A stretch of DNA of 64,000 nucleotides from an uncultured Gammaproteobacteria bacterium. GTDB lineage: Bacteria > Patescibacteriota > Microgenomatia > CAYQLK01. The stretch lies in the NCBI GenBank assembly GCA_964404855.1, contig CAYOLO010000002.1, forward strand, positions 67,494 through 131,493. Direction: 5' to 3'. Shown here in pieces: positions 3,697 to 39,102 of this stretch. Made by a program: the position numbers and the translations under genes. The notes below the pieces were generated by a model that made no database searches, had not been told where the DNA came from, and saw only the letters and a list, made by a program, of their open reading frames with translations. Position 1 is the stretch's first letter; the number at the start of each line of letters is the position of its first letter.

Positions 3697-4295
3697 TTTT
3701 GATCTTTAATTTCCCCAATACCTTTAATTTTACCCGAAGTGATTAATGTTATTGCTTTTTGATGCCAAGGAAAACGAGTGATTTTTAAAATATCATGGGT
3801 TTTTTTCTCTAGCTCATGCTTAGCAGCTGGTACGCCTTGAATTTGGGCGATGGCGTCAATATGATCTGCTGCTTTGGCAAACCTGGCCTCTAAACTTTTT
3901 CTTTCTGAATACTCCTTGTATAAACTAAGAATCTCTTCTTTGTTAACTAAATCCTCAACGAGTATTTCCATTCCTTTATCCTCTATATCGCGAAATTTTC
4001 CTTTTTCTAAATATTTTACAAACGACCCAACATCTCCAACAATTGTTTCTGCTAAATCATGAAACAATGCCATTTTAAGAACTTTGTTTTCGTCAACTCT
4101 AGGTTTTTTGTTTTCCTTATTGTGAAGAATGGCTAGCTCGTAAGCAAGAATTGCTGTCGCAAAGGAGTGAGCAGCGACAGAATCTGCCTCATTTCTTTTG
4201 AACCCTAATGTGACAAATCCTTGTCTGGGTAGTTCCTTCGTCCACTGAATGCGTAAAAAAAATTTGATTAGACTTGTTAAATTATTCGTTTTCAT
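3693..4295 (-). CDS. HD-domain phosphohydrolase (YfbR-like 5'-deoxynucleotidase family)
   Basis: H..FATAIL...FHDLAETIVGD motif of HD superfamily; 200 aa; 4-nt overlap with serS. Confidence 0.65.
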   Translation of the reverse strand: MKTNNLTSLIKFFLRIQWTKELPRQGFVTLGFKRNEADSVAAHSFATAILAYELAILHNKENKKPRVDENKVLKMALFHDLAETIVGDVGSFVKYLEKGKFRDIEDKGMEILVEDLVNKEEILSLYKEYSERKSLEARFAKAADHIDAIAQIQGVPAAKHELEKKTHDILKITRFPWHQKAITLITSGKIKGIGEIKDQK

Positions 4296-5745
4296 TTTTC
4301 CCTTCTTTCATAAGCGGGAAAATTACGGTCTCCCGAATAGGCAAGCCCATAAGAACTGAAAATAGCCTTTCAGATACTCCAAACCCAGCCGCTGGTGGCA
4401 TTCCATATTCCATTGCCTCAATATATTCCTCATCAATCATTTGGGCCTCATTATCGCCGTTTTCTCTGAGTTTCATTTGATTTTCAAATCTTTCCCTTTG
4501 ATCAATTGGATCATTAAGCTCTCCAAATCCTTTACCTAACTCTGAACCAAAAGCTAATATTTGCATACGCTGAACTGTTTTGGGATTATCAAGGTTCTTT
4601 TTGGCCAAAGGTTCTATTTCGATTGGAGGGTTAATTAAAAAAGCAGGTTGCAGTGAGACTTCTGGGAGTATACGAATTTTCTTTTTAAAAATTAGATCAA
4701 TAATTCTTCCTCGGCCCGCTGATTTTTCGTAAGTGATTTTGTTTGATTTGGCATATCTAAATAACTCTTCATCACTGGCTGTGAGAAGATTGATGTCGGT
4801 GTGTTTCCTAAACAAATCTAGATATTCAAGTTTTGGCCAATTACCTGACCAGTCAACAACTTGCCCCTCTCTTTCAAACTTAAGCGTACCGAAGGTTTCT
4901 TGAATCACAAACTGATACATTTTTTGAGTAAAATCCATTAGTTTATTGAACTCTCCATAAGCCCAATAAAATTCCATTTGGGTGTAATCTTGAAGGTGCT
5001 CAGAATCTATTCCCTCATTCCTGAAAATCCTCCCTATCTCAAATACTTTTTCGTATCCCGCTACCAGCATTTTTTTAAGCGGCAGTTCTAATGAAATTCT
5101 CAGGTAAAAATCTCTATCTAAAGCATTGTGGTGAGTTACAAATGGCTCAGCTTCTGCGCCTCCAGGAATATTTTCCAAAATCGGCATCTCGACCTCGAGA
5201 AAATCTTCGTTAACTAAAAACTGTCGCATTGATGACCAGAACTTATTTTTTTTAATAAAAATATCTTTTACCTCTGGATTAATTAATATATCCAGATAAC
5301 GTTTTCTCAATCTTGTTTCAATATTGGCCAATCCATAGTACTCACTCGGAATCGGTAGTAAAGATTTAGCGAGAAGTTTGTAAGTTTTTATATCAACCGT
5401 GGTTTGACCAGCGTTTGTTACAAATACTTTGCCTGTAACTTCTAGGAAGTCTCCAATATCCAAAAGTGAAATTTTTTTAAAAACTGCTTTATCCAGTTCA
5501 TCGGATTTAAAAAGAATCTGAATTTGACCGCTAAAATCTACCAAATCGCCAAAGATAATTTTGCCATGGGATCTAAGGGAAAAAAGTCTGCCAACAATCG
5601 TTACTTCTTTTTCCAGAGACTCTAGAGCAGAACTAATTGTGTGGGACCTGTTTGAACTTGAAGGATAGACTTCAATATTTTGATCTTGAAGTTTTTTTAA
5701 TTTGTCGAGCCTGATTTTTCTTAGTTCTGATAATGGACTTGGCAT
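4282..5745 (-). CDS. lysS: Lysyl-tRNA synthetase, class II
   Basis: N-terminal OB-fold region; motif 2 FRNEGIDSEHLQDYTQMEFYWAY; motif 3 GFGVSERLFSVLMG; 487 aa. Confidence 0.9.
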   Translation of the reverse strand: MPSPLSELRKIRLDKLKKLQDQNIEVYPSSSNRSHTISSALESLEKEVTIVGRLFSLRSHGKIIFGDLVDFSGQIQILFKSDELDKAVFKKISLLDIGDFLEVTGKVFVTNAGQTTVDIKTYKLLAKSLLPIPSEYYGLANIETRLRKRYLDILINPEVKDIFIKKNKFWSSMRQFLVNEDFLEVEMPILENIPGGAEAEPFVTHHNALDRDFYLRISLELPLKKMLVAGYEKVFEIGRIFRNEGIDSEHLQDYTQMEFYWAYGEFNKLMDFTQKMYQFVIQETFGTLKFEREGQVVDWSGNWPKLEYLDLFRKHTDINLLTASDEELFRYAKSNKITYEKSAGRGRIIDLIFKKKIRILPEVSLQPAFLINPPIEIEPLAKKNLDNPKTVQRMQILAFGSELGKGFGELNDPIDQRERFENQMKLRENGDNEAQMIDEEYIEAMEYGMPPAAGFGVSERLFSVLMGLPIRETVIFPLMKEGKNENE

Positions 5746-7306: not shown

Positions 7307-9328
7307 TTAAAATGTTAGAAATGGGATTATTAGGATAGCAACAATATTAATAATCTTAATCATTGGGTTGATTGCAGGTCCGGCAGTGTCCTTATATGGG
7401 TCACCAACCGTGTCACCAGTAACGGCAGCCTTGTGTGCGTCAGAGCCTTTACCACCATAGTTTCCAGCTTCAATGTATTTTTTGGCATTATCCCAAGCTG
7501 CTCCACCAGAAGTCATTGATAGTGCTAGAAATAGTCCTGAAATTATTGAACCAATAAGTAGTCCACCAAGAGCTTCTACGCCTAGAATCAAACCAATAAT
7601 TATTGGCGCTGCTACAGGAATTAATGCAGGAAAAATCATTTCTTTTAGCGCTGTTTTTGTAACAATATCGACACACTTTGCATAGTCAGGCTTACCTGTG
7701 CCATCCATAATGCCTTTAATTTCAGCAAATTGTCTGCGAACTTCGACAACAACTGCACTTCCAGCCTTACCAACGGCTTCCATAGCAAATGCTGAAAATA
7801 TAAACGGTAGTGCTGCTCCTAAAAATAGTCCAATCATGACATTGGGATCTGATAGTAAGAATTGAACATCAATACCAAGCACTTTAAATTCTAAAGAGTA
7901 GCTTGCAAAAAGAACTAACGAAGCTAGTCCTGCTGAAGCAATAGCATAACCCTTTGTAACTGCTTTGGTTGTATTACCAACAGCATCGAGAGCATCGGTT
8001 ACCTTACGAACTTTTTCTGGTAGTGCAGACATTTCTGCAATACCTCCGGCGTTATCAGTAATCGGACCATATGCATCAATTGCAACAATAATCCCTGACA
8101 TTGAAAGCATAGAGATTGCAGCGATTGCAATTCCATAAAGTCCACCCAGATAAAAACTTCCGAATATTGCTAATACGATTAGCAATATTGGAGCAAAGGT
8201 TGATTTCATACCTAGAGCAAGTCCTGCAATAACATTGGTTCCGTGACCAGTTGTCGAGGCAAGCGCAACGCCTTTAACGGGAGAATATTTTGTAGAAGTG
8301 TAGAACTCAGTAATAACGACCATGCCAATGGTAACAACGATACCAATGAGTGAAGCAAGATAAAGATTAAGCGAAGAAATTAATCCATTGCTCTCCATTG
8401 TAAGCATTGTTACAGGGTAAAATAGAATTGCAGAAATCAATGCTGAACTAAAAAGCCCCAAATAAAGAGCGCCCATAATACTTTTATTTTTTGGCAACTT
8501 AACAAACAAAGTACCAACAATAGATCCAATAATAGAAACTGCACCAAGAAGGAGTGGGAAAATCACTGCATTCGTACCAGAAGTGAAGCTTAAGTGTCCG
8601 AGGAACATTGCTGCTACTGCTGTAACTACATAAGTTTCAAAAAGATCAGCCGCCATTCCAGCATCATCACCAACATTGTCTCCAACATTGTCGGCTATTA
8701 CAGCTGGATTTCTCGGGTCGTCCTCAGGAATTCCGGCTTCGACCTTACCAACTAGGTCTGCTCCAACATCAGCTCCTTTGGTAAATATTCCACCACCAAG
8801 ACGAGCGAAAACTGAAATCAAACTTCCTCCAAATGCCAAACCAACTAATGGTTTAACATCTTGAACTACAAGGTAAAATCCAGCAACCGAGATCATAGCT
8901 AAACCAACAACCATAAGTCCTGTTACAGTTCCACCTTTAAAAGATACATCTAGGGCTTTTGAAAGAGAGGTTCTGGCAGCTTGCGCTGTTCGAACATTTG
9001 CCCGAACACTTACTGACATACCAATAAAACCTGCGGAAGCTGATGCTAATGCACCAACCAGGAATCCGATTGAAGTTTCGATATCTAACAAGAATCCAAT
9101 TGCAACTGCGATAACTACAGCCAGTATTCCAATAATTGAATATTGTCTCGTCATAAAAGCATTAGCTCCAATTTGGATGGCTTTTGCAATTTCATTCATT
9201 TTTTCATTACCAGTTGGTAATGCAAGTATCCAGCGAATCAAATATATTCCATATCCGATTGCGGCAAGACCAGAGATAATAGCGATTGGTAGGGCAAAGT
9301 TGGCTGTTAGTTCTTTAATTAAATCCAT
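7307..9328 (-). CDS. hppA: Membrane-bound proton-translocating pyrophosphatase (V-type H+-PPase)
   Basis: 673 aa polytopic protein; DNVGDNVGD and GGxxxK/DTxGD-type motifs ([14 protein letters not shown]) diagnostic of H+-PPases. Confidence 0.9.
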
Positions 9329-31767: not shown

Positions 31768-33516
31768 TTACTCAAGAGTAAAAAAATCTTCCACATCTTG
31801 ACCTGAGTCTATTTTTCGCCTTTGTATTTGACCATCCTTACCCACCACAATTATATAATCTACTCCCAGATCTTTTAAAAACATCTCATCGTGCGTGATT
31901 GTCATAACTGCACCAGAATATCTTTTAAGTGCGTCTTCTAGTGTTTCAATCGTATAGATATCAAGATGGTTAGTTGGTTCGTCTAGCACTAGCAGATCTG
32001 GATTGGAAACAAAGAGCGCGACAAGTTCTATCCGGCGAAGCTCGCCAAAACTAAAATCTCCCACTTTCTTATGTGCAGAATCATCAAGCAGCATTCGCGA
32101 CAATGCTTTGTATGCGTCCTCTACGGATACAACCGCCTTGCGACGAATATAATCAATAATATTTTGATCCATTTTTGGTTTATCAGCAGTTTGAGATAAA
32201 TAACCAATTTTTAGTCCGGGTGGAATATCTACCTTGCCTTTGGTCGGAAGCAAGGAGCCGGTAATTACCTTAAGTAGGGTACTTTTACCGGCACCATTGG
32301 CTCCAACAATACCGATTCGTTCTCCACCATGGACAACCAAATCTACGTTAGTAAATATGTCTGAACCATTATGGGGATACCCAAAAGAAATATCTTTCGC
32401 ATTTAGCAGCACACCTGATTTAATTTGAGGCTCCTTCACCTCGAAGGATGGTTTTTTAGGAAGTACTGGCTCGGGTATATCAGATAACTCTCTTTCAATT
32501 CGCACCAGTTGTGATTTTGCTCTTTTGGCTAAAGCACCGCCTTTTGATCGGTAGAACGAATCGTTTGAAATGCCTTCAAATCTTTGTGCCTCTTGTTTTA
32601 GTTGTTTTACAGAATCTTCCAATTGTTTACGTTTTTTCATTTGTTCGTCATAAAGCCTCATTTGAGCTTCAAACATCTCCTGTTTTTTTTGTCGATAAAA
32701 GGTGTAATTTCCACCGAATTTGATTAGTTTTTTTGTTGCTTCGTCGATTTCGATTATTTGAGTTACAGTTTCATCCAGAAACTCACGATCGTGAGAGACA
32801 AGTAATAGAGAGGTGTTTGTTTGTTTAACCCAATCTTCTAGAAACTTCACGCTTTGCGGATCAAGGTTGTTTGTTGGCTCGTCTAATAGAATTAGATTAG
32901 GTGATGAAACGAGTATTCCAGCAAGGGAAACCTTGGTCGCTTCCCCACCACTGATTTCTGTCATATCTCTATCAAGATAATCGGGGGTCAGACCTAAACC
33001 TTTTAAAATTATTTCTCTTTTGCGAGCAAAATCCCACGCATCATATTTGGTCATATCCTCGAGCGCTTTGCCATAGTCGTCCATCAGCTGATCATCGGTT
33101 TTGCCAGCAGCCATCCGTGCGGTCAGCTGGTCATAAGTCTCGATTACTTTGGCCACTTGATCGGCACAACTATCCAAATATTGTTTAACACTACCGTCAA
33201 ATGTAACCTGAATATCCTGATTTAAATATCCAACAGAGGCTTGTGATAAAACAATGTCCCCTTTAACATCTAAATGTTCAGGTGGCGGATTACCATCTGC
33301 AACAGTCGATATCAAATCTAAAATAGATGTTTTACCGCTTCCGTTGCGACCAATTAGTGCAAGTCGCTCTGAAGGTCCAATAGTAAAGTTACCATCAACA
33401 ACCAGCTCTTTCGCTCCAATTCCTAAGTTGAGACCGGTCACAACAAGTCTTGCATTTTCTGTTATTTTTTCTTCCATCCTTACCTCCGGATTAACTCTTA
33501 ATTTTTCATTTCCCAT
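31768..33516 (-). CDS. ABC-F family ATPase (two ABC cassettes with ~80-aa charged linker, no TM domain)
   Basis: Walker A GRNGSGKTS and GANGAGKST; signatures LSGGE-like (ISGGEATKV, FSFGELRRI); start codon 1 nt after sagB-like stop. Confidence 0.85.
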   Translation of the reverse strand: MGNEKLRVNPEVRMEEKITENARLVVTGLNLGIGAKELVVDGNFTIGPSERLALIGRNGSGKTSILDLISTVADGNPPPEHLDVKGDIVLSQASVGYLNQDIQVTFDGSVKQYLDSCADQVAKVIETYDQLTARMAAGKTDDQLMDDYGKALEDMTKYDAWDFARKREIILKGLGLTPDYLDRDMTEISGGEATKVSLAGILVSSPNLILLDEPTNNLDPQSVKFLEDWVKQTNTSLLLVSHDREFLDETVTQIIEIDEATKKLIKFGGNYTFYRQKKQEMFEAQMRLYDEQMKKRKQLEDSVKQLKQEAQRFEGISNDSFYRSKGGALAKRAKSQLVRIERELSDIPEPVLPKKPSFEVKEPQIKSGVLLNAKDISFGYPHNGSDIFTNVDLVVHGGERIGIVGANGAGKSTLLKVITGSLLPTKGKVDIPPGLKIGYLSQTADKPKMDQNIIDYIRRKAVVSVEDAYKALSRMLLDDSAHKKVGDFSFGELRRIELVALFVSNPDLLVLDEPTNHLDIYTIETLEDALKRYSGAVMTITHDEMFLKDLGVDYIIVVGKDGQIQRRKIDSGQDVEDFFTLE

Positions 33517-33517
33517 A

Positions 33518-34231
33518 TTAACCTATAGCAATTGAATATATAGCTTTTTCGTTTGTTCTGTCAATTCGAAGCAGTTTGTTGAGCTTGTCTTCATAAAAAC
33601 CGCCAATTGGACAAGTTCGAACTTTATATTTTTCCGCGATTAATAATATATTTTGAGCCAAATGGCCCGCTTCTATAAAAATATATCTTAATGATTTGTC
33701 TCCGTATTTAATTGCACTTCTTCCTGGAACAGCGGTGATAACCAAAAAAACTGAAGAGTTTGCGACCCAGCTATCTACGAGCGACTGTTTTAAATCTGAT
33801 TTAAAATCTTTTAGTTGGAGTATTTCTAGCGTGTTGTTTTCAATCGAGTAATGATACAAGCCTTTTTTTAAACCTTTAACATTGTTTATAAAAATATAAA
33901 TTTCTAATGGATACCTTGCACCACCAGATGGATACGCACGATAGCTGCGACCGTCGACAGTTGCAGCAAAATTTGCAAAATAAATAATTTTTTTAAGCCT
34001 AATAGCTGATATGAGACGATTGATATTCCTTTGGCTTCTTCTACTGGCAATAACTTTTTCTAGTTCTGATGAGGGCTTGAGTGCTGGGAGTTTAAGATTG
34101 GGAAACCTTGGATAGTTTTTGTAATGAATTGTTTTCCAGGCAATCGGCCACTTATCGTACGGAATTGGTTCTGGAGCAGTGTCCGACTGTGTTCCAGTTT
34201 CGATAAAAAATTTGTTTATATAATCTTTCAT
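33518..34231 (-). CDS. SagB-type FMN-dependent dehydrogenase (TOMM/LAP azoline oxidase, nitroreductase superfamily)
   Basis: RAYPSGGARYPLEIY signature; 237 aa; 4-nt overlap with YcaO gene. Confidence 0.8.
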   Translation of the reverse strand: MKDYINKFFIETGTQSDTAPEPIPYDKWPIAWKTIHYKNYPRFPNLKLPALKPSSELEKVIASRRSQRNINRLISAIRLKKIIYFANFAATVDGRSYRAYPSGGARYPLEIYIFINNVKGLKKGLYHYSIENNTLEILQLKDFKSDLKQSLVDSWVANSSVFLVITAVPGRSAIKYGDKSLRYIFIEAGHLAQNILLIAEKYKVRTCPIGGFYEDKLNKLLRIDRTNEKAIYSIAIG

Positions 34232-35520
34232 AGGAATGGTTGTAGAAATGGATCTAGGTTTTTGATTTGTCGTTTGGCGATTTTTTCAATGCGGCTGACT
34301 TCAAGATATTTATATTCCTCTTCTAAATATAATGGCTGGGCCTGGGGAATAATGATTTTACAAGCAAAAAATCCTAATTTTTTAATTTCTGGGTCATCAA
34401 ATTCTTTTAAATAAACATCAAACCCGATTTTTTTAAGCTGAGAAGTTAGTTTCTTTAATGTGGTTTTTGGATAACTTGACTTAAGCGAAAGTCTGATTGT
34501 TTTTTTATTTTTTAACCAAAAATTAATGTGTTTAAGAACGAACGGTTGACTCCAAATTAGTCCTCGGTCTTTCAGCTCGTATGTCTGATTAATGTTTTTT
34601 AGCAATGATTGGATATATTTTTCATCAGATTTTGCTAGCTCGTCACGCATCCAACCCCGAGTATGAAATGATTCCTCAAGACTGCCTTGAACAGCACGAT
34701 TTAAATCTGTGTGGCATTTCAGACCAAAAGTGACAACAGGTTTATTTTTTGTCTGATCAAGGAGAATTGTCAAAATTACTGGAATATCATAGTCATTGTC
34801 TAATTTAATTATTATTGGTTTGAGATTGTAAAAATTGAATTCATCCAAAATATCAGCAATAATACCCGATGGATTTGTTAGCTTAAGAATTGTACCTGGC
34901 AATTTAGCAAGATAAGAGGATATAAATGTGTCTCTTTCTAAGACTTCAAATATTGCTCGAATAATCGTTGAGTTTCTATCAAGACCTGCGGATGCGCCGG
35001 TTGATATTGGTGTGCGGATAATTTTTTCTTTTTTTCCAAATGGACAATATACTGTTTGAGCAGGAATATATATCGTTTTGTTTGTAGTCAAATCTGTCGC
35101 TTTGGTCCAGTAAAGCGAATCTTGAGGCTGTGCAATCTTTTTTCGAAAGATTGGGTTGGATAATTGTTCAGGTGAGAATTTTAGAAATTTTATTAACTCG
35201 ATTGAGGGGGATAGATTTTTTTGGGAAGCAAATATTAAATCTTTTAAATCTTTTTTTGATGGAATCAAAGCATATCTTTCTACCATTTCGATGTAACCTT
35301 TTATAAAAGCAAGTCTCTCATCCCACGCAGATCCGCTTGCATTGGTACTGAATTTTTTTGACGAGTTTTTACTGTTCAATATGAACGTATACAATTTAGG
35401 TTCATCGTTATAAAAATAACTTCGATGTACCGTCGATATAAAATTTGTTTTTTTGTGGGCAGACACACATTTCTGATATAGCAATTCTAGATTGCTTTCT
35501 ATCGATTTTTTGTTTGACAT
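34228..35520 (-). CDS. YcaO-domain cyclodehydratase (SagD/D-protein-like), standalone (no fused E1-like domain)
   Basis: N-terminal ATP-site motif NASGSAWDERLAFIKGYIEMVERYA and central STGASAGLDRNSTIIRAIFEVLERD (S.G.A.G...A..E..ERD). Confidence 0.85.
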   Translation of the reverse strand: MSNKKSIESNLELLYQKCVSAHKKTNFISTVHRSYFYNDEPKLYTFILNSKNSSKKFSTNASGSAWDERLAFIKGYIEMVERYALIPSKKDLKDLIFASQKNLSPSIELIKFLKFSPEQLSNPIFRKKIAQPQDSLYWTKATDLTTNKTIYIPAQTVYCPFGKKEKIIRTPISTGASAGLDRNSTIIRAIFEVLERDTFISSYLAKLPGTILKLTNPSGIIADILDEFNFYNLKPIIIKLDNDYDIPVILTILLDQTKNKPVVTFGLKCHTDLNRAVQGSLEESFHTRGWMRDELAKSDEKYIQSLLKNINQTYELKDRGLIWSQPFVLKHINFWLKNKKTIRLSLKSSYPKTTLKKLTSQLKKIGFDVYLKEFDDPEIKKLGFFACKIIIPQAQPLYLEEEYKYLEVSRIEKIAKRQIKNLDPFLQPFL

Positions 35521-35540
35521 AAATGCTTTTCTTTTTATTT

Positions 35541-35554
35541 GTGTGAGCTCACAC
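35541..35554. promoter_or_regulatory. Perfect 14-bp palindrome GTGTGAGCTCACAC between precursor gene and ycaO
   Basis: Seen directly; 13 nt downstream of precursor A1 stop on minus strand; no U-tract after it in mRNA sense. Confidence 0.35.
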
Positions 35555-35584
35555 TAGCTTTCTTAACCTAAATTAAGATCACTA

Positions 35585-35728
35585 TTATCTACCGGAATTT
35601 GAGCCTGTGTGTCCACATGAGCCCTGCGCAGAAGCACTACTGGTAGCATTTGCTATTTCTTCCTTTGATAATTCAACCTCTGAAATAACTTCGTCGTATT
35701 CCTTGGCGTTAATGTTAGTATTGTTCAC
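35585..35728 (-). CDS. Candidate RiPP precursor peptide A1 (47 aa; absent from ORF track)
   Basis: Minus-strand GTG at plus 35726-35728 preceded by AAAGGAGGTGA SD; in-frame TGA inside the SD blocks upstream extension; product MNNTNINAKEYDEVISEVELSKEEIANATSSASAQGSCGHTGSNSGR, with a Ser/Cys/Thr/Gly-rich core. Confidence 0.55.
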   Translation of the reverse strand: MNNTNINAKEYDEVISEVELSKEEIANATSSASAQGSCGHTGSNSGR

Positions 35729-35760
35729 TTTTTTCTTTCACCTCCTTTCAAATATTGATT

Positions 35761-36012
35761 TTATCTACAGTTTCCATGACAACCACTATGGGAACAAGCT
35801 GAACAATTTGAAGAGTTTGAGCTTGCGCTGGTTGAGAAATTTGCATAGCTGTCTTTAACAATTATCTTCAGTTCCAACAAACTAAACGGCTCGTACTCTT
35901 TAAAATTTTTAATTCTTTCTGGGTAATTTTGATCAAAAAAAACCCGAGCAATTGCTCGGGAACTCGCTGCTTTTTTATTATTTAACAAACACAACCGAAG
36001 TTTGTTTTTCAT
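35761..36012 (-). CDS. Candidate RiPP precursor peptide A2 (paralog of A1; N-terminal extent uncertain)
   Basis: C-terminus ...KEYEPFSLLELKIIVKDSYANFSTSASSNSSNCSACSHSGCHGNCR aligns with A1 (KEY...EL.K....AN. then TSAS...SC.H.G...R). ATG at 36010-36012 is 6 nt from a promoter -10 (leaderless). An intrinsic terminator lies inside the first 75 nt. Confidence 0.4.
   Translation of the reverse strand: MKNKLRLCLLNNKKAASSRAIARVFFDQNYPERIKNFKEYEPFSLLELKIIVKDSYANFSTSASSNSSNCSACSHSGCHGNCR
35935..35960 (-). terminator. Intrinsic terminator/attenuator hairpin inside the 5' part of the A2 ORF
   Basis: Perfect CCCGAGCAA/TTGCTCGGG stem (plus 35943-35960) followed on the minus-strand RNA by U8 (plus A8 at 35935-35942). 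Could also terminate the upstream pilin/repeat-protein operon. Confidence 0.55.
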
Positions 36013-36024
36013 TATTGTAGTGGG

Positions 36025-36052
36025 ATTGTAACAAATTTGTGATAAAAGTCAA
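36025..36052 (-). promoter_or_regulatory. Sigma70-like promoter TTGACT-16-TACAAT upstream of the RiPP-like operon
   Basis: Minus-strand -35 TTGACT (plus 36047-36052), 16-nt spacer, -10 TACAAT (plus 36025-36030). Confidence 0.4.
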
Positions 36053-36079
36053 GATTATTTATTTCTTCGATACTTAATT

Positions 36080-38230
36080 TTAAATACAAGTTGCTGAATC
36101 GAAACACAAGCCATCCTCTGGTGCGAGGTCTTTGAGGGCGCCATTGAAATTGAGGAACGCAGAATTAAGCGCATTGGGGCGAATATAGTTAGAACTACAA
36201 CTTGAGCTATCCTGAAGCACCGCCGTTCCTCCTTGCGTCGTTACCATGTAATCATTTGGTACTCCATCAGAATCTGGGTCGTATAAGCAGATGTATTTTT
36301 GAGTAATTTGAGTACCTGTCGCGTTAAAAAGTGTGATTCCGGGCGCTCGAACTATTTGCTTAGTTGGACCCCAAACTAGAACACTGCCTGGGTTAACAGT
36401 CATGTCAGCATCCATTTGAATACTACCAGTATCTGACCCAACGAGCTTAACCTGTGTTGTTGAAACCGTTAGTCCATTAGTAGGAATGTTACAAGATGAG
36501 CCGATAGTGACATCTCCTGAAACTGGAAATGTACAACCTGACGCGGGGGTTACTGTAGTAAATGTGTCGTCTGTGGTGTAAGCAGTGCCTGCAGAGTTAG
36601 TGGCATAAACTCGGAAATGATATAAAGTTTCTGGGCTGAGATTCGGGATAATTACACTAAAAACACCTGTTGTACCCGAAGTGCCTAGACAATTACCGCC
36701 AATACTCGGATTGGCACTTAAACCAACGCATACACCTCGACCAGTAATAGTATTACCGTTATCAGAAGTTACATTTGCCCCAAGGTTTGCGTTAATCGTG
36801 GTAATAGCATTTTTGGTTGAAGACGAAATAGAAGGCGGACTATTTTTAGTAACCGTAAAGCTTGTATCGGCACAATTATTAGCACCATCACATACTCTTA
36901 AATATCTAGTGTTGGATCCAGTTGTTAATGCCGCATCAACAATGGAGCCTGTAGTTACAGACTGGGCACTAGTAGCTGAGGTCCCAGTGAGGTAGGTGCC
37001 AGTACCGTTTGGACCAGTGTAAACATAACCAAGTAATTCACTAGCATTTGTGCTGGCAGCATCATTTGGAGTGAATGTAACAGTGTAAGTGTTATCAGTT
37101 GAGACTGCGGTAGGGGTGTGGGAAATTGAGGTGGTACTAGTTGGATTAACCGTATCTCTATATAACCAAGTGAACCAGTCACTTGACCAAACGACACCAT
37201 CAGAAACACGTAAATAAACAACATTAGCCCCTTCAACTATACCTGTCTGTGTATAAGCAAAAGTGCCAAAATTGTTTGTTTGACCACTGGTCGTTGTGCC
37301 GTTAGTGATAAGCGTGCCTCCTCCACCGGGAGCGGTACGTAGCTGCCAAGATAGTGCGTTAGCGCCTGTTTGTTCTGCATCATTGGCGCGCAATGAAAAA
37401 GACCAGGTTGTATTTGCGCCTGTTCTAAATCTGCTGTTTTGATAAGTTACTGACGGACCTATAGAAACTGTTGGAGCCGTGTTGGGGTTAAGTGTAGTAA
37501 AAGTGTCGTCTGTGGTATAAACCGTACCCGCAGAACTGGTTGCATAGGCACGATAGTGATAAAGCGTGTTACTGTTCAATCCGCTGACTGCAATCGTAAA
37601 TATCCCTGTTGTTCCACTAGTACTTGTACATCCTGTAGTTGGATTAGCTGAAAGACCAACACATACACCTCTACCTGACCATGTTCCATTTCCGGCTGAA
37701 GTAACATTTCCACCAAGTGTTGCACCAGTGGTTGTGATTGATGTTTTGGTTGGTGAGGTAATAGTTGGAGGTGTTTGACAGTTAAGGGCGGTGAATGTGG
37801 ATGATGCTTTATTCATCGCTGGCCACCCTAAATTGCGATCCTGAAGAAGGATTGTGTAGCTTACGCCTGCTGTAAAACCTGACCCTCCTTTGTTCCAAGT
37901 GTTGGAATATGTACCAGATAAAAATTGACTGAAGTCGTACATACTCGAATATTTGTTATAGGGATTATCTGTGCTTCCAGCTGAACCATTTGGACCTTCG
38001 ACTGTATAGTTGACTGAAAGCGATGATATGTTTCCAACGCAGATTGGAGTTGCGGAATTAATCGTATAAGCTGCATAAACCGATTTGAGTTTTCCAACTG
38101 TGATTGTGCCGATAATTAACAACACAAAAGTCAATAATACTTTAGACGATGTTCGTGAGTATTGATTGCAAAAAATTAGAGTCAATAGTTTCATATTGTT
38201 TTTGAGTAAATTGAGTTTGAAATTTTTCAT
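36080..38230 (-). CDS. Large secreted/cell-surface protein with tandem ~95-aa beta-rich (FN3/Ig-like) repeat modules
   Basis: Signal/TM N-terminus; internal repeats ...GRGVCVGLSANPTTGCTSTSGTTGIFTIAVSGLNSNTLYHYRAYATSSAGTVYTTDDTFTTL and ...GRGVCVGLSANPSIGGNCLGTSGTTGVFSVIIPNLSPETLYHFRVYATNSAGTAYTTDDTFTTV; 5 nt after pilin gene. Confidence 0.6.
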   Translation of the reverse strand: MKNFKLNLLKNNMKLLTLIFCNQYSRTSSKVLLTFVLLIIGTITVGKLKSVYAAYTINSATPICVGNISSLSVNYTVEGPNGSAGSTDNPYNKYSSMYDFSQFLSGTYSNTWNKGGSGFTAGVSYTILLQDRNLGWPAMNKASSTFTALNCQTPPTITSPTKTSITTTGATLGGNVTSAGNGTWSGRGVCVGLSANPTTGCTSTSGTTGIFTIAVSGLNSNTLYHYRAYATSSAGTVYTTDDTFTTLNPNTAPTVSIGPSVTYQNSRFRTGANTTWSFSLRANDAEQTGANALSWQLRTAPGGGGTLITNGTTTSGQTNNFGTFAYTQTGIVEGANVVYLRVSDGVVWSSDWFTWLYRDTVNPTSTTSISHTPTAVSTDNTYTVTFTPNDAASTNASELLGYVYTGPNGTGTYLTGTSATSAQSVTTGSIVDAALTTGSNTRYLRVCDGANNCADTSFTVTKNSPPSISSSTKNAITTINANLGANVTSDNGNTITGRGVCVGLSANPSIGGNCLGTSGTTGVFSVIIPNLSPETLYHFRVYATNSAGTAYTTDDTFTTVTPASGCTFPVSGDVTIGSSCNIPTNGLTVSTTQVKLVGSDTGSIQMDADMTVNPGSVLVWGPTKQIVRAPGITLFNATGTQITQKYICLYDPDSDGVPNDYMVTTQGGTAVLQDSSSCSSNYIRPNALNSAFLNFNGALKDLAPEDGLCFDSATCI

Positions 38231-38235
38231 ATAAG

Positions 38236-39102
38236 TTATCGAATAATAATTTCTGATGTAATTTCTTGCTCTTCTGAATCCATTGCGGATAGGTGCACAG
38301 TATAAGTTGTATCGTGAGTATCAGTGTGTGGAATACTAACTGCCCATGTTTCCCTATATATTTGATTGCTTATTGTAGAAGATGTTTGAGTAAGGTTAAA
38401 AGTTTCTGTAGTCGAGTTATCTAACTCAATATAAGCTGATACTTGACCGATTGGGTGTTCGGACCAAACTTTGGCTGTTACTAATTGCGTCTGACCAACC
38501 CCTGCATCAAGAGGATCAAAATCAACTTGAATTATTTTTGGGTATGTTGTCGATGATCCAAAATATGAAACCTTCCCTTGAATTAATTCGGTAGGAGACG
38601 GTGTGGGGGTTGGGCTTGGCGTTGGGGTTGGTATAAGATAAATTGACGCCAAGGAACTATTTGCACTCGCCAGTCCAGCATTATAAACACCTAGTGGTCC
38701 ACATTTGCCATTGCACGAAAACTCGTTAGGGACTAGATTCTCAAACTTGGCATATAGTTGATATTCGGTTCCGAATTGGGAGACGTATGCATATTTTTGA
38801 TTTTTGAGTGGATCAGACGGAAGCTGCATATATGTACTCCAATTGCTTCCCCAAGGAGCAGCAGATATTTCATAGTTATCATTTGATAGTGGATAAATAT
38901 TATTTGCCACACGATATGCCTCAATTGCTGTCTGAACAGCTTTGAGATCAGATGCTCTCTGTAGATCTCTTGTTCTACGTAGCTGAATAACAGGATTGAT
39001 GGCAATTATCACTAAAGAAATTAGTACACCTAAAATTCCGATGAATACGATAATTTCTATGGTTGTAAATCCAAAATTAAGCGTACTGCGCTTACTACAC
39101 AT
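38236..39102 (-). CDS. Type IV pilin-like protein (class III signal peptide)
   Basis: KRSTLNFG|FTTIEIIVFIGILGVL with Gly-1, Phe+1, Glu+5; PTPTPSPTPTPSPT linker. Confidence 0.75.
   Translation of the reverse strand: MCSKRSTLNFGFTTIEIIVFIGILGVLISLVIIAINPVIQLRRTRDLQRASDLKAVQTAIEAYRVANNIYPLSNDNYEISAAPWGSNWSTYMQLPSDPLKNQKYAYVSQFGTEYQLYAKFENLVPNEFSCNGKCGPLGVYNAGLASANSSLASIYLIPTPTPSPTPTPSPTELIQGKVSYFGSSTTYPKIIQVDFDPLDAGVGQTQLVTAKVWSEHPIGQVSAYIELDNSTTETFNLTQTSSTISNQIYRETWAVSIPHTDTHDTTYTVHLSAMDSEEQEITSEIIIR

Follow-up and report, generated by a model that had tools for sequence, protein, structure and literature searches.

We examined a 64,000-nt window of DNA from an uncultured bacterium (assembly GCA_964404855.1, contig CAYOLO010000002.1, positions 67,494 to 131,493). 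Within it lies a minus-strand operon made up of a conserved promoter, two paralogous precursor open reading frames (ORFs A and B), a YcaO gene, a gene for a SagB-type dehydrogenase and a gene for an ABC-F (ATP-binding cassette, subfamily F) ATPase. A first-pass annotation of the window had taken this operon for a minimal cluster for azol(in)e-forming RiPPs (peptides made on the ribosome and modified after translation). The gene order, the junctions and the motifs on which that reading was built (GSAWDERLAFIKGYIEMVERYA and STGASAGLDRNSTIIRAIFEVLERD in YcaO, RAYPSGGARYP in the dehydrogenase) are all present in the ORF translations; the YcaO and SagB genes overlap by 4 nt (34228-34231), and a 1-nt gap (33517) separates SagB from ABC-F. 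In the order of transcription, the operon carries the following features.

36025..36052, minus strand: sigma-70-type promoter, TTGACT, 16 nt and an extended -10 element TGTTACAAT; 10/12 matches, TG present
35761..36012, minus strand: precursor ORF B, 83 codons, ATG start, leader K-N-x-K-E-(Y/F)
35764-35823, minus strand: core of ORF B, codons 64-83, SSNSSNCSACSHSGCHGNCR
35739-35745, minus strand: Shine-Dalgarno sequence of ORF A, GGAGGTG, with the GTG start 10 nt downstream
35585..35728, minus strand: precursor ORF A, 47 codons, GTG start, leader N-A-K-E-Y-D-E-V
35588-35647, minus strand: core of ORF A, codons 28-47, ATSSASAQGSCGHTGSNSGR
34228..35520, minus strand: YcaO, 430 aa, stand-alone, single domain; PF02624 135 bits
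33518..34231, minus strand: SagB-type azoline dehydrogenase dependent on flavin mononucleotide (FMN), 237 aa; TIGR03605 131.5 bits against a cut-off of 78.4
31768..33516, minus strand: ABC-F ATPase, ribosomal-protection-like, 582 aa; two ABC_tran domains and ABC_tran_Xtn, no transmembrane domain

The promoter was found as first described, TTGACT-16-TACAAT, and its TTGAC and TTTGnTACAAT parts are invariant in four lineages in which the flanks have diverged. Taken as a class, promoter-like sites are no more frequent in the region than in shuffled sequence (19 observed, 18.4 expected). The ATG of ORF B lies 12-13 nt downstream of the -10 element, so the operon transcript would be nearly leaderless.

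Among the NCBIfam models, YcaO best matches TIGR03604, the SagD model of thiazole/oxazole-modified microcins (TOMMs; 178.5 bits, E = 1.8e-52); the McrA-thioamidation model (methan_mark_1) scores 73 bits and the S12-type model 17 bits. This ranking excludes an E. coli-type YcaO, but the SagD score lies under its cut-off of 219.25 bits. Across 40 homologues, E78, E81, R82, E192, R196 and D197 are invariant and E195 is nearly so (at least 90%). When the profile of these 40 homologues was compared with the PDB, the azoline-forming heterocyclases of cyanobactins MusD, TruD and LynD were the best matches (E = 1e-37 to 1e-32), the Methanocaldococcus jannaschii YcaO MJ1094 came close to LynD and TruD (E = 1.7e-31) and McbD matched weakly (E = 4.8e-4). 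The AlphaFold2 (AF2) model (mean predicted local distance difference test score, pLDDT, 91.9) is, by Foldseek, one YcaO fold from end to end. It matched the M. jannaschii YcaO (best by E-value, target-normalised TM score 0.77-0.80), the YcaO domain of LynD and MusD, with E. coli YcaO clearly further off.

The dehydrogenase is SagB-type by profile score, motifs and fold, as the first-pass annotation had it, and not a generic nitroreductase. Across 40-59 homologues there is no variation at R98, P101, S102, G104, R106, K175 and Y176 and next to none at Y100 and P108; the motif R-x-YPS-x-G-x-R-x-P and the K175-Y176 pair are thereby kept. Foldseek searches with the AF2 model (pLDDT 89.9) returned BmdC oxidase, McbC and ThcOx as top matches, ahead of ordinary nitroreductases.

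To see how far this gene pair extends, we surveyed 66 non-redundant loci with this YcaO family from the candidate phyla radiation (CPR) and from DPANN archaea, plus a few others. The CPR loci come from Dojkabacteria, Roizman-, Ames-, Zambryski-, Kaiser- and Wildermuthbacteria and many poorly labelled metagenome-assembled genomes; the DPANN loci come from Aenigm-, Woese-, Pace-, Nano-, Micr- and Parvarchaeota, Diapherotrites and Iainarchaeum. SagB lies directly downstream of YcaO in 59/66 loci. We then grouped into families every ORF of 80 aa or more that lies up to 4 kb from the pair on either side. This revealed no further universal gene beside YcaO-SagB in the 66 loci; the recurrent extra neighbours were a DUF2268 Zn-protease (15 loci), ABC-F (12), a 211-aa uncharacterised family (9), an M16 peptidase (6) and a C39-like peptidase (5).

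Canonical TOMM cyclodehydratases depend for leader binding on a partner, either an E1-like C protein or an Ocin-ThiF-like F protein (PMC7136475). The same ORF clustering revealed no E1-like or ThiF-like partner in any of the 66 loci, and a Pfam search of the neighbours found no candidate partner within 10 kb either side of the window cluster. Neither AF2 model has a spare domain resembling a RiPP recognition element (RRE), and the SagB N-terminus has no winged helix-turn-helix. The "canonical logic" ascribed to the cluster by the first-pass annotation is therefore not borne out, since no partner gene was found near the cyclodehydratase in any locus. With no partner protein, leader recognition would fall to YcaO itself or to the YcaO-SagB pair. 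Judged by its sequences and models, the system appears to work like the synthetase of a linear azol(in)e-containing peptide (LAP) while lacking one defining feature of such systems, the C/F partner or RRE.

These comparisons also bear on a different chemistry, in which YcaO would install backbone thioamides or an amidine and the SagB-like protein would be structural or cryptic, like AmiE in streptamidine biosynthesis, where the dehydrogenase is essential without net oxidation (PMC8442711). The best Foldseek matches of YcaO by E-value, with MJ1094 close to LynD and TruD in the profile comparison, are stand-alone thioamide-forming archaeal YcaOs, the SagD score is under its cut-off, and the lack of a C/F partner recalls bottromycin and archaeal YcaOs, all of which would suit such a chemistry. 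We nevertheless regard it as improbable. No TfuA or other sulfur-delivery gene was found in any of the 66 loci by neighbour clustering, SagB keeps its K-Y and FMN motifs and has true azoline oxidases as its nearest structures, and the Cys/Ser/Thr-rich cores of the precursors carry the substrate signature of cyclodehydration. The C-terminus of YcaO may point the same way: the family consensus FPHPFL (P428 nearly invariant, F429 invariant; DPFLQPFL in the window protein) resembles, without strictly matching, the Pro-rich PxPxP-like end of azoline-forming YcaOs (PMC8442711).

The small ORFs that the first-pass annotation picked out as precursors are conserved in homologous loci. Both are kept in the syntenic relatives used here, L015, L004/L005 and L016 (YcaO 86%, 76% and 75% identical to that of the window), where ORF B again has 83 codons. 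Among the core codons of ORF A in the four lineages, 12 vary synonymously, 0 non-synonymously and 8 are invariant; in the core of ORF B the numbers are 16, 2 and 2. Pooled over both cores, the variable codons are thus 28 synonymous versus 2 non-synonymous, and the leaders vary freely except for the K-E-(Y/F) motif. Both peptide cores are under strong purifying selection, the pattern expected for RiPP precursors. ORF B also matches thiazolyl_B (NF033400) weakly (E = 0.0018). At greater distance, L075, L006, L018 and L019 (YcaO 37-47% identical) carry one precursor each upstream of YcaO, for example MSKIRNAMEYTPLINSLVGSNCNQTSCSHTGTNSSACYGIKLTKKTK; in these, as in the window peptides, the leader has (K/M)-E-(Y/F) and the core has (S/A)-C-x-H-(T/S)-G.

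The precursor data speak to a further alternative, namely that YcaO-SagB modifies a cellular protein and the small ORFs are not its substrates. Cellular proteins, namely uL16 and McrA, are the substrates of E. coli-type and archaeal YcaOs (PMC13063428, PMC5589413), and in small CPR and DPANN genomes a widely kept gene pair could be housekeeping. The 28 to 2 ratio in the cores is hard to accommodate in this way, as are the small cognate ORFs that lie upstream of YcaO in many loci of both domains of life, bacterial and archaeal. Together with the related possibility that the adjacency of ABC-F is mere inherited synteny, taken up below, we consider this very improbable.

Several precursor families elsewhere in the survey differ from that of the window. 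Eight DPANN loci (L042, L043, L048, L049, L056, L058, L060 and L061) have precursors upstream of YcaO, at roughly 4500-4980 in most, and L032 has one of the same family at 3860-4066; these share a leader motif (I/L)-E-N-A-P-Y followed by Ser/Cys/Asn-rich cores and form a family distinct from the CPR K/M-E-Y/F type. The L072 precursor (4658-4897) has a (GGGS)x7 tract before its Cys-rich end QCSNSGNPCGGSCNRCSK, which recalls the Gly tracts of microcin B17; the L072 cluster carries an ABC-F gene despite this tract. L066 has, at 8020-8142, an ORF of Cys/Trp repeats (CWCCWCCWCW...) close to a YcaO-SagB pair that is itself in fragments; this ORF probably reflects a simple repeat in the DNA and not a precursor.

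The first-pass annotation listed the ABC-F gene in the operon, which holds, and offered no reading of it; it turned out to be the most informative gene of the locus. Starting the search from YcaO, we find ABC-F downstream of YcaO-SagB both in the syntenic clade and at L006, L018 and L019, where the flanks differ from those of the window and a C39-like peptidase lies between YcaO-SagB and ABC-F. The nearest non-syntenic ABC-F homologues are 46-51% identical, and all four that were looked up (L072, L073, L074 and L075) lie directly after YcaO-SagB, with a Cys-rich precursor upstream of the pair and each in a different genomic context. ABC-F is thus co-inherited with the cluster in at least five unrelated genomic contexts. 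As a control we used 81 other ABC-F loci (746 kb in all), namely L076, a soil-bacterial homologue 43% identical to the window protein, and 80 generic loci, which are 27-37% relatives taken from among the matches listed in a metagenome scan with the pattern LLDEPTNN. A SagB-family neighbour was found in 0/81 of these control loci, the generic ones being those among the matches listed, and L076 has no YcaO nearby. The four homologues after YcaO-SagB and the absence of such neighbours in the controls argue that ABC-F is a dedicated member of one branch of the clusters. They also run counter to inherited synteny as an explanation, given the at least five unrelated contexts and the 0/81 control adjacency (again with generic loci from among the matches listed).

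The sole YcaO case in the 81 control loci (generic ones among the matches listed) is L103. Here a marginal YcaO-domain ORF (8273-9079; 26.5 bits in Pfam against a cut-off of 25.7) is found some 700 nt downstream from an unrelated, generic ABC-F gene, surrounded by broken-looking ORFs.

The window ABC-F is also distinguished by its sequence. Against NF000355, the model for "ribosomal protection-like ABC-F" proteins, it scores 403.8 bits (cut-off 380), and 6/6 LAP-linked ABC-Fs tested pass (387-409 bits), whereas their scores against the equivalog models EttA, Uup, YbiT and YheS are far too low for the cut-offs of these. L076, the soil homologue without the linkage, scores 336, under the NF000355 cut-off. 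The window protein is under the cut-off of every named subfamily model of antibiotic resistance (ARE) ABC-Fs (Sal 287 of 725, producer type 259 of 800). From H-loop 1 to the second Walker A motif it has 163 aa, compared to 144-149 in two other ABC-Fs. Its linker aligns to that of Sal-type 7p48 with gaps of only 1-2 residues; by comparison, the linker of YheS is 16 aa shorter and that of ABCF1 11 aa shorter, and that of VmlR-like 8buu is about 13 aa longer. The signature of the second nucleotide-binding domain (NBD2), FSFGE, is degenerate: its S-F-G-E is comparable to the S-M-G-E of Sal and the S-L-G-E of the VmlR-like protein, while S-G-G is retained in YheS and ABCF1. The Walker A, Walker B and H-loop motifs are intact in both domains. 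By these sequence features the window ABC-F is ARE-like, with a putative role in ribosomal protection.

Taken together, we think it very probable that the operon makes azole-modified RiPPs. In the mechanism we propose, the two paralogous precursors would be translated, with leaders sharing K/M-E-Y/F and cores sharing (S/A)-C-x-H-(T/S)-G. The single-domain YcaO would use ATP to cyclodehydrate core Cys, Ser and Thr to azolines, the SagB-type flavoprotein would oxidise the azolines to azoles, and the ARE-like ABC-F would shield the producer's own ribosomes by target protection. If ABC-F protects its own ribosomes, the mature peptides would inhibit translation at the large subunit, like klebsazolicin and phazolicin. 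Azole-modified LAPs are known as ribosome inhibitors (PMC7136475, PMC6783444), and ABC-F genes are described as self-resistance genes of antibiotic producers (PMC8546547). With both precedents, a large-subunit target with ABC-F immunity is the most economical reading. For the ribosome target and the ABC-F immunity themselves we see the case as evenly poised. An azole-RiPP operon with ABC-F self-protection is the explanation of the whole locus that we favour, with moderate confidence.

Several observations weigh against this explanation. On the enzyme side, the SagD score of YcaO falls short of the curated cut-off, and by fold LynD and the thioamide-forming M. jannaschii YcaO are equally close to it. 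A characterised LAP synthetase that forms azoles with neither a C nor an F partner did not turn up in our literature search, and bottromycin YcaOs were the sole stand-alone azoline precedent there. The core of ORF A contains a single Cys, and the window cluster has no leader peptidase or exporter within 10 kb either side. On the ABC-F side, about 55/66 YcaO-SagB loci have no ABC-F at all. The ABC-F subfamily also has soil-bacterial members, such as L076, that are not beside YcaO, so the ARE-like features are not specific to LAP clusters. Finally, the ABC-Fs of L018 and L019 do not group with the window clade in a neighbour-joining tree, which could reflect either two origins of the linkage or an unreliable tree.

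A second layer of the locus lies in its non-coding signals, three of which fall within or between the precursor and YcaO genes.

35935..35960, minus strand: intrinsic terminator CCCGAGCAATTGCTCGGG, CCCGAGC, a 4-nt loop and GCTCGGG (a 7-bp G+C-rich stem), then T8; within codons 18-27 of ORF B
35984..36006, minus strand: upstream hairpin AACAAAC...GUUUGUU, codons 3-9 of ORF B, predicted in the consensus fold
35541..35554, no strand assigned: perfect 14-nt palindrome GTGTGAGCTCACAC, in the interval that separates the stop of ORF A from the start of YcaO

The first-pass annotation did not mention the terminator. Its stem and T-tract are nucleotide-invariant in the four lineages; its loop alone varies, and the adjoining codons vary freely. 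We considered whether the ATG and promoter assigned to ORF B are spurious and rejected this, since no in-frame ATG, GTG or TTG occurs in ORF B downstream of the terminator in any of the four lineages and the 83-codon frame is open in all four. A transcript from the operon promoter would thus have to cross a strong terminator, which a ribosome following close behind would melt. With low confidence, we propose the embedded terminator as a candidate translation-coupled attenuator, which would serve as a feedback device if the operon makes a translation inhibitor. No equivalent embedded terminator was found in the other ABC-F-linked loci that we searched; L018 has an ordinary terminator-like hairpin downstream of its precursor.

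The same signal bears on another interpretation of ABC-F. The operon may make azole RiPPs while ABC-F acts as a translation factor for the Ser/Cys/Gly-rich precursors and the ORF B leader, or as an LmrC-like sensor or regulator, with the peptides aimed elsewhere, for example at gyrase or the membrane. Housekeeping ABC-Fs rescue ribosomes on difficult sequences (PMC11381351), and a conserved terminator inside the coding region of ORF B means that expression may depend on efficient translation. LmrC itself is described as a signalling component, and not a resistance factor alone (PMC8546547). The Gly-rich tract of the L072 precursor resembles that of the gyrase poison microcin B17, and both catalytic Walker B glutamates of ABC-F are intact, which is compatible with any ABC-F function. 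However, the linked ABC-Fs pass the ribosomal-protection-like model and not the housekeeping equivalogs, and the linker length and degenerate second signature resemble those of ARE proteins. The embedded terminator is moreover restricted to the window clade, and ABC-F is linked in clades without it too. On balance we judge a non-immunity role for ABC-F unlikely, although less so than the thioamide or cellular-protein alternatives.

Of the remaining signals, the upstream hairpin shows two changes, both A-U to G-U, and zero compensatory double changes, so that its support is weak. The palindrome GTGTGAGCTCACAC does not vary among the four lineages, in which the sequence on either side has diverged, and on the operon strand it has no U-tract after it. 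It is possibly an operator, or an RNA processing or stability stem that sets the precursor-to-enzyme ratio.

Clusters of this general type are already on record. Sharrar et al. (2020, mBio, PMC7298704) described, from the genome of a Microgenomates bacterium from soil (Microgenomates_ANG_785), a LAP cluster that encodes an 84-aa precursor, YcaO, a nitroreductase and a peptidase, along with 110 more LAP clusters in 93 further CPR genomes, in which a nitroreductase adjoins YcaO in 89/110, and proposed phazolicin as a possible functional analogue. Surveys based on antiSMASH list YcaO RiPPs in DPANN too. In view of these reports, the first-pass annotation's claim that one would not expect such clusters in episymbiont-like genomes no longer holds, and what was found is at base of a known type; here the pair is present in 59/66 CPR and DPANN loci. 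The Sharrar clusters resemble that of the window in host radiation, in precursor length (84 aa versus 83 aa for ORF B) and in the order of YcaO and then nitroreductase or SagB. Compared by description, their published example differs in having a peptidase as its third gene and no ABC-F, and the paper makes no mention of ABC-F, of a missing C/F partner or of two paralogous precursors.

Phazolicin and klebsazolicin, LAPs that bind in the exit tunnel of the ribosome, share with our system linear, Ser/Cys-rich cores and a YcaO with an FMN dehydrogenase, and both are translation inhibitors (PMC6783444, PMC7136475). Their clusters encode a McbBCD-like synthetase with an E1-like C protein, a dedicated exporter and immunity that is not by ABC-F, whereas the window cluster lacks both C protein and exporter and has ABC-F; the similarity of the cores is compositional only, and a shared target is here presumptive. 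Bottromycin BotC/BotCD and the M. jannaschii McrA-thioamidation YcaO (6PEU) are likewise single-domain proteins of about 380-430 aa without an E1-like or ThiF-like partner. They differ in having no SagB partner and in their products, which are a macroamidine, a single thiazoline or, on a protein, a thioamide, while the window YcaO belongs with an invariable partner, SagB, and multi-Cys/Ser peptides as its putative substrates.

The ARE ABC-Fs (OleB/CarA/SrmB/TlrC, LmrC, Sal, Vga, Msr and VmlR) share two nucleotide-binding domains, no membrane domain and an extended linker with the window protein, which lies within a biosynthetic cluster as the self-resistance genes of producers do. To our knowledge, the cognate drugs of known ARE ABC-Fs are all small molecules. 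We found no link of ABC-F to YcaO, phazolicin or RiPP clusters in the literature, in a search that was incomplete. As far as we searched, the conserved ABC-F with its target prediction, the partner-less YcaO-SagB pair across CPR and DPANN and the leader-embedded terminator appear to be new.

The surroundings of the operon are less informative than was first thought. Upstream, at 36080-39102 on the minus strand of the window, lie genes for a 716-aa protein whose C-terminal half gives weak FN3/Ig-like matches under the threshold and for a 288-aa type-IV-pilin-like protein (T2SSG/N-methyl type). The first-pass annotation had taken this pilin/adhesin neighbourhood as a functional clue; it is confined to the syntenic clade plus L008 and L062, while the cluster occurs in at least five unrelated contexts, and we rejected these genes as part of the system. 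Elsewhere, L039 (2833-8672) has two tandem YcaO-SagB pairs in one locus. In L011 and L013 (8060-13350) the pair sits beside the DUF2268 Zn-protease and conjugation or type IV secretion-like genes (TraG/TrwB-like, PrgI-like and TraC-like), which hints that some clusters are on mobile elements. L075 abuts a HepT/MNT toxin-antitoxin pair, and an rve_3 integrase fragment lies downstream of ABC-F in L073.

The CPR-like background proposed for the window is supported only indirectly, by nearest named homologues from Microgenomates, Levybacteria and Dojkabacteria. The public label "uncultured Gammaproteobacteria" of L015, L016, L020-L022, L024, L026 and L027 looks wrong, because their gene content and nearest named relatives are CPR (Microgenomates/Dojkabacteria-like).

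What the operon means for the CPR depends on ABC-F. If its link to the cluster is housekeeping, the finding reduces to one more CPR LAP cluster of the reported type. The 430-aa YcaO and 237-aa dehydrogenase, with short precursors, would be the smallest known azole-installing system, attractive for peptide engineering. If ABC-F is the immunity factor, it predicts a mode of action from sequence, namely inhibition of the ribosome near the peptidyl-transferase centre or exit tunnel, and would bring peptides made on the ribosome, besides small-molecule antibiotics, within the reach of ABC-F target protection. As a tentative hypothesis, to which we give somewhat less credence than to its ribosome-target component, we propose that the peptides of this CPR clade inhibit the large ribosomal subunit and are countered by ABC-F target protection of their own, as the first such RiPP family, and that the partner-less YcaO-SagB pair of CPR and DPANN is a minimal synthetase. 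Because the window cluster lacks an exporter and peptidase and carries, in a precursor leader, a terminator that may be sensitive to translation, the peptide and ABC-F might act inside the producer as a translation brake and its release. A translation inhibitor from a tiny-genome, obligate episymbiont would then raise the question of whether its target is the host, competitors for the host or the producer itself.

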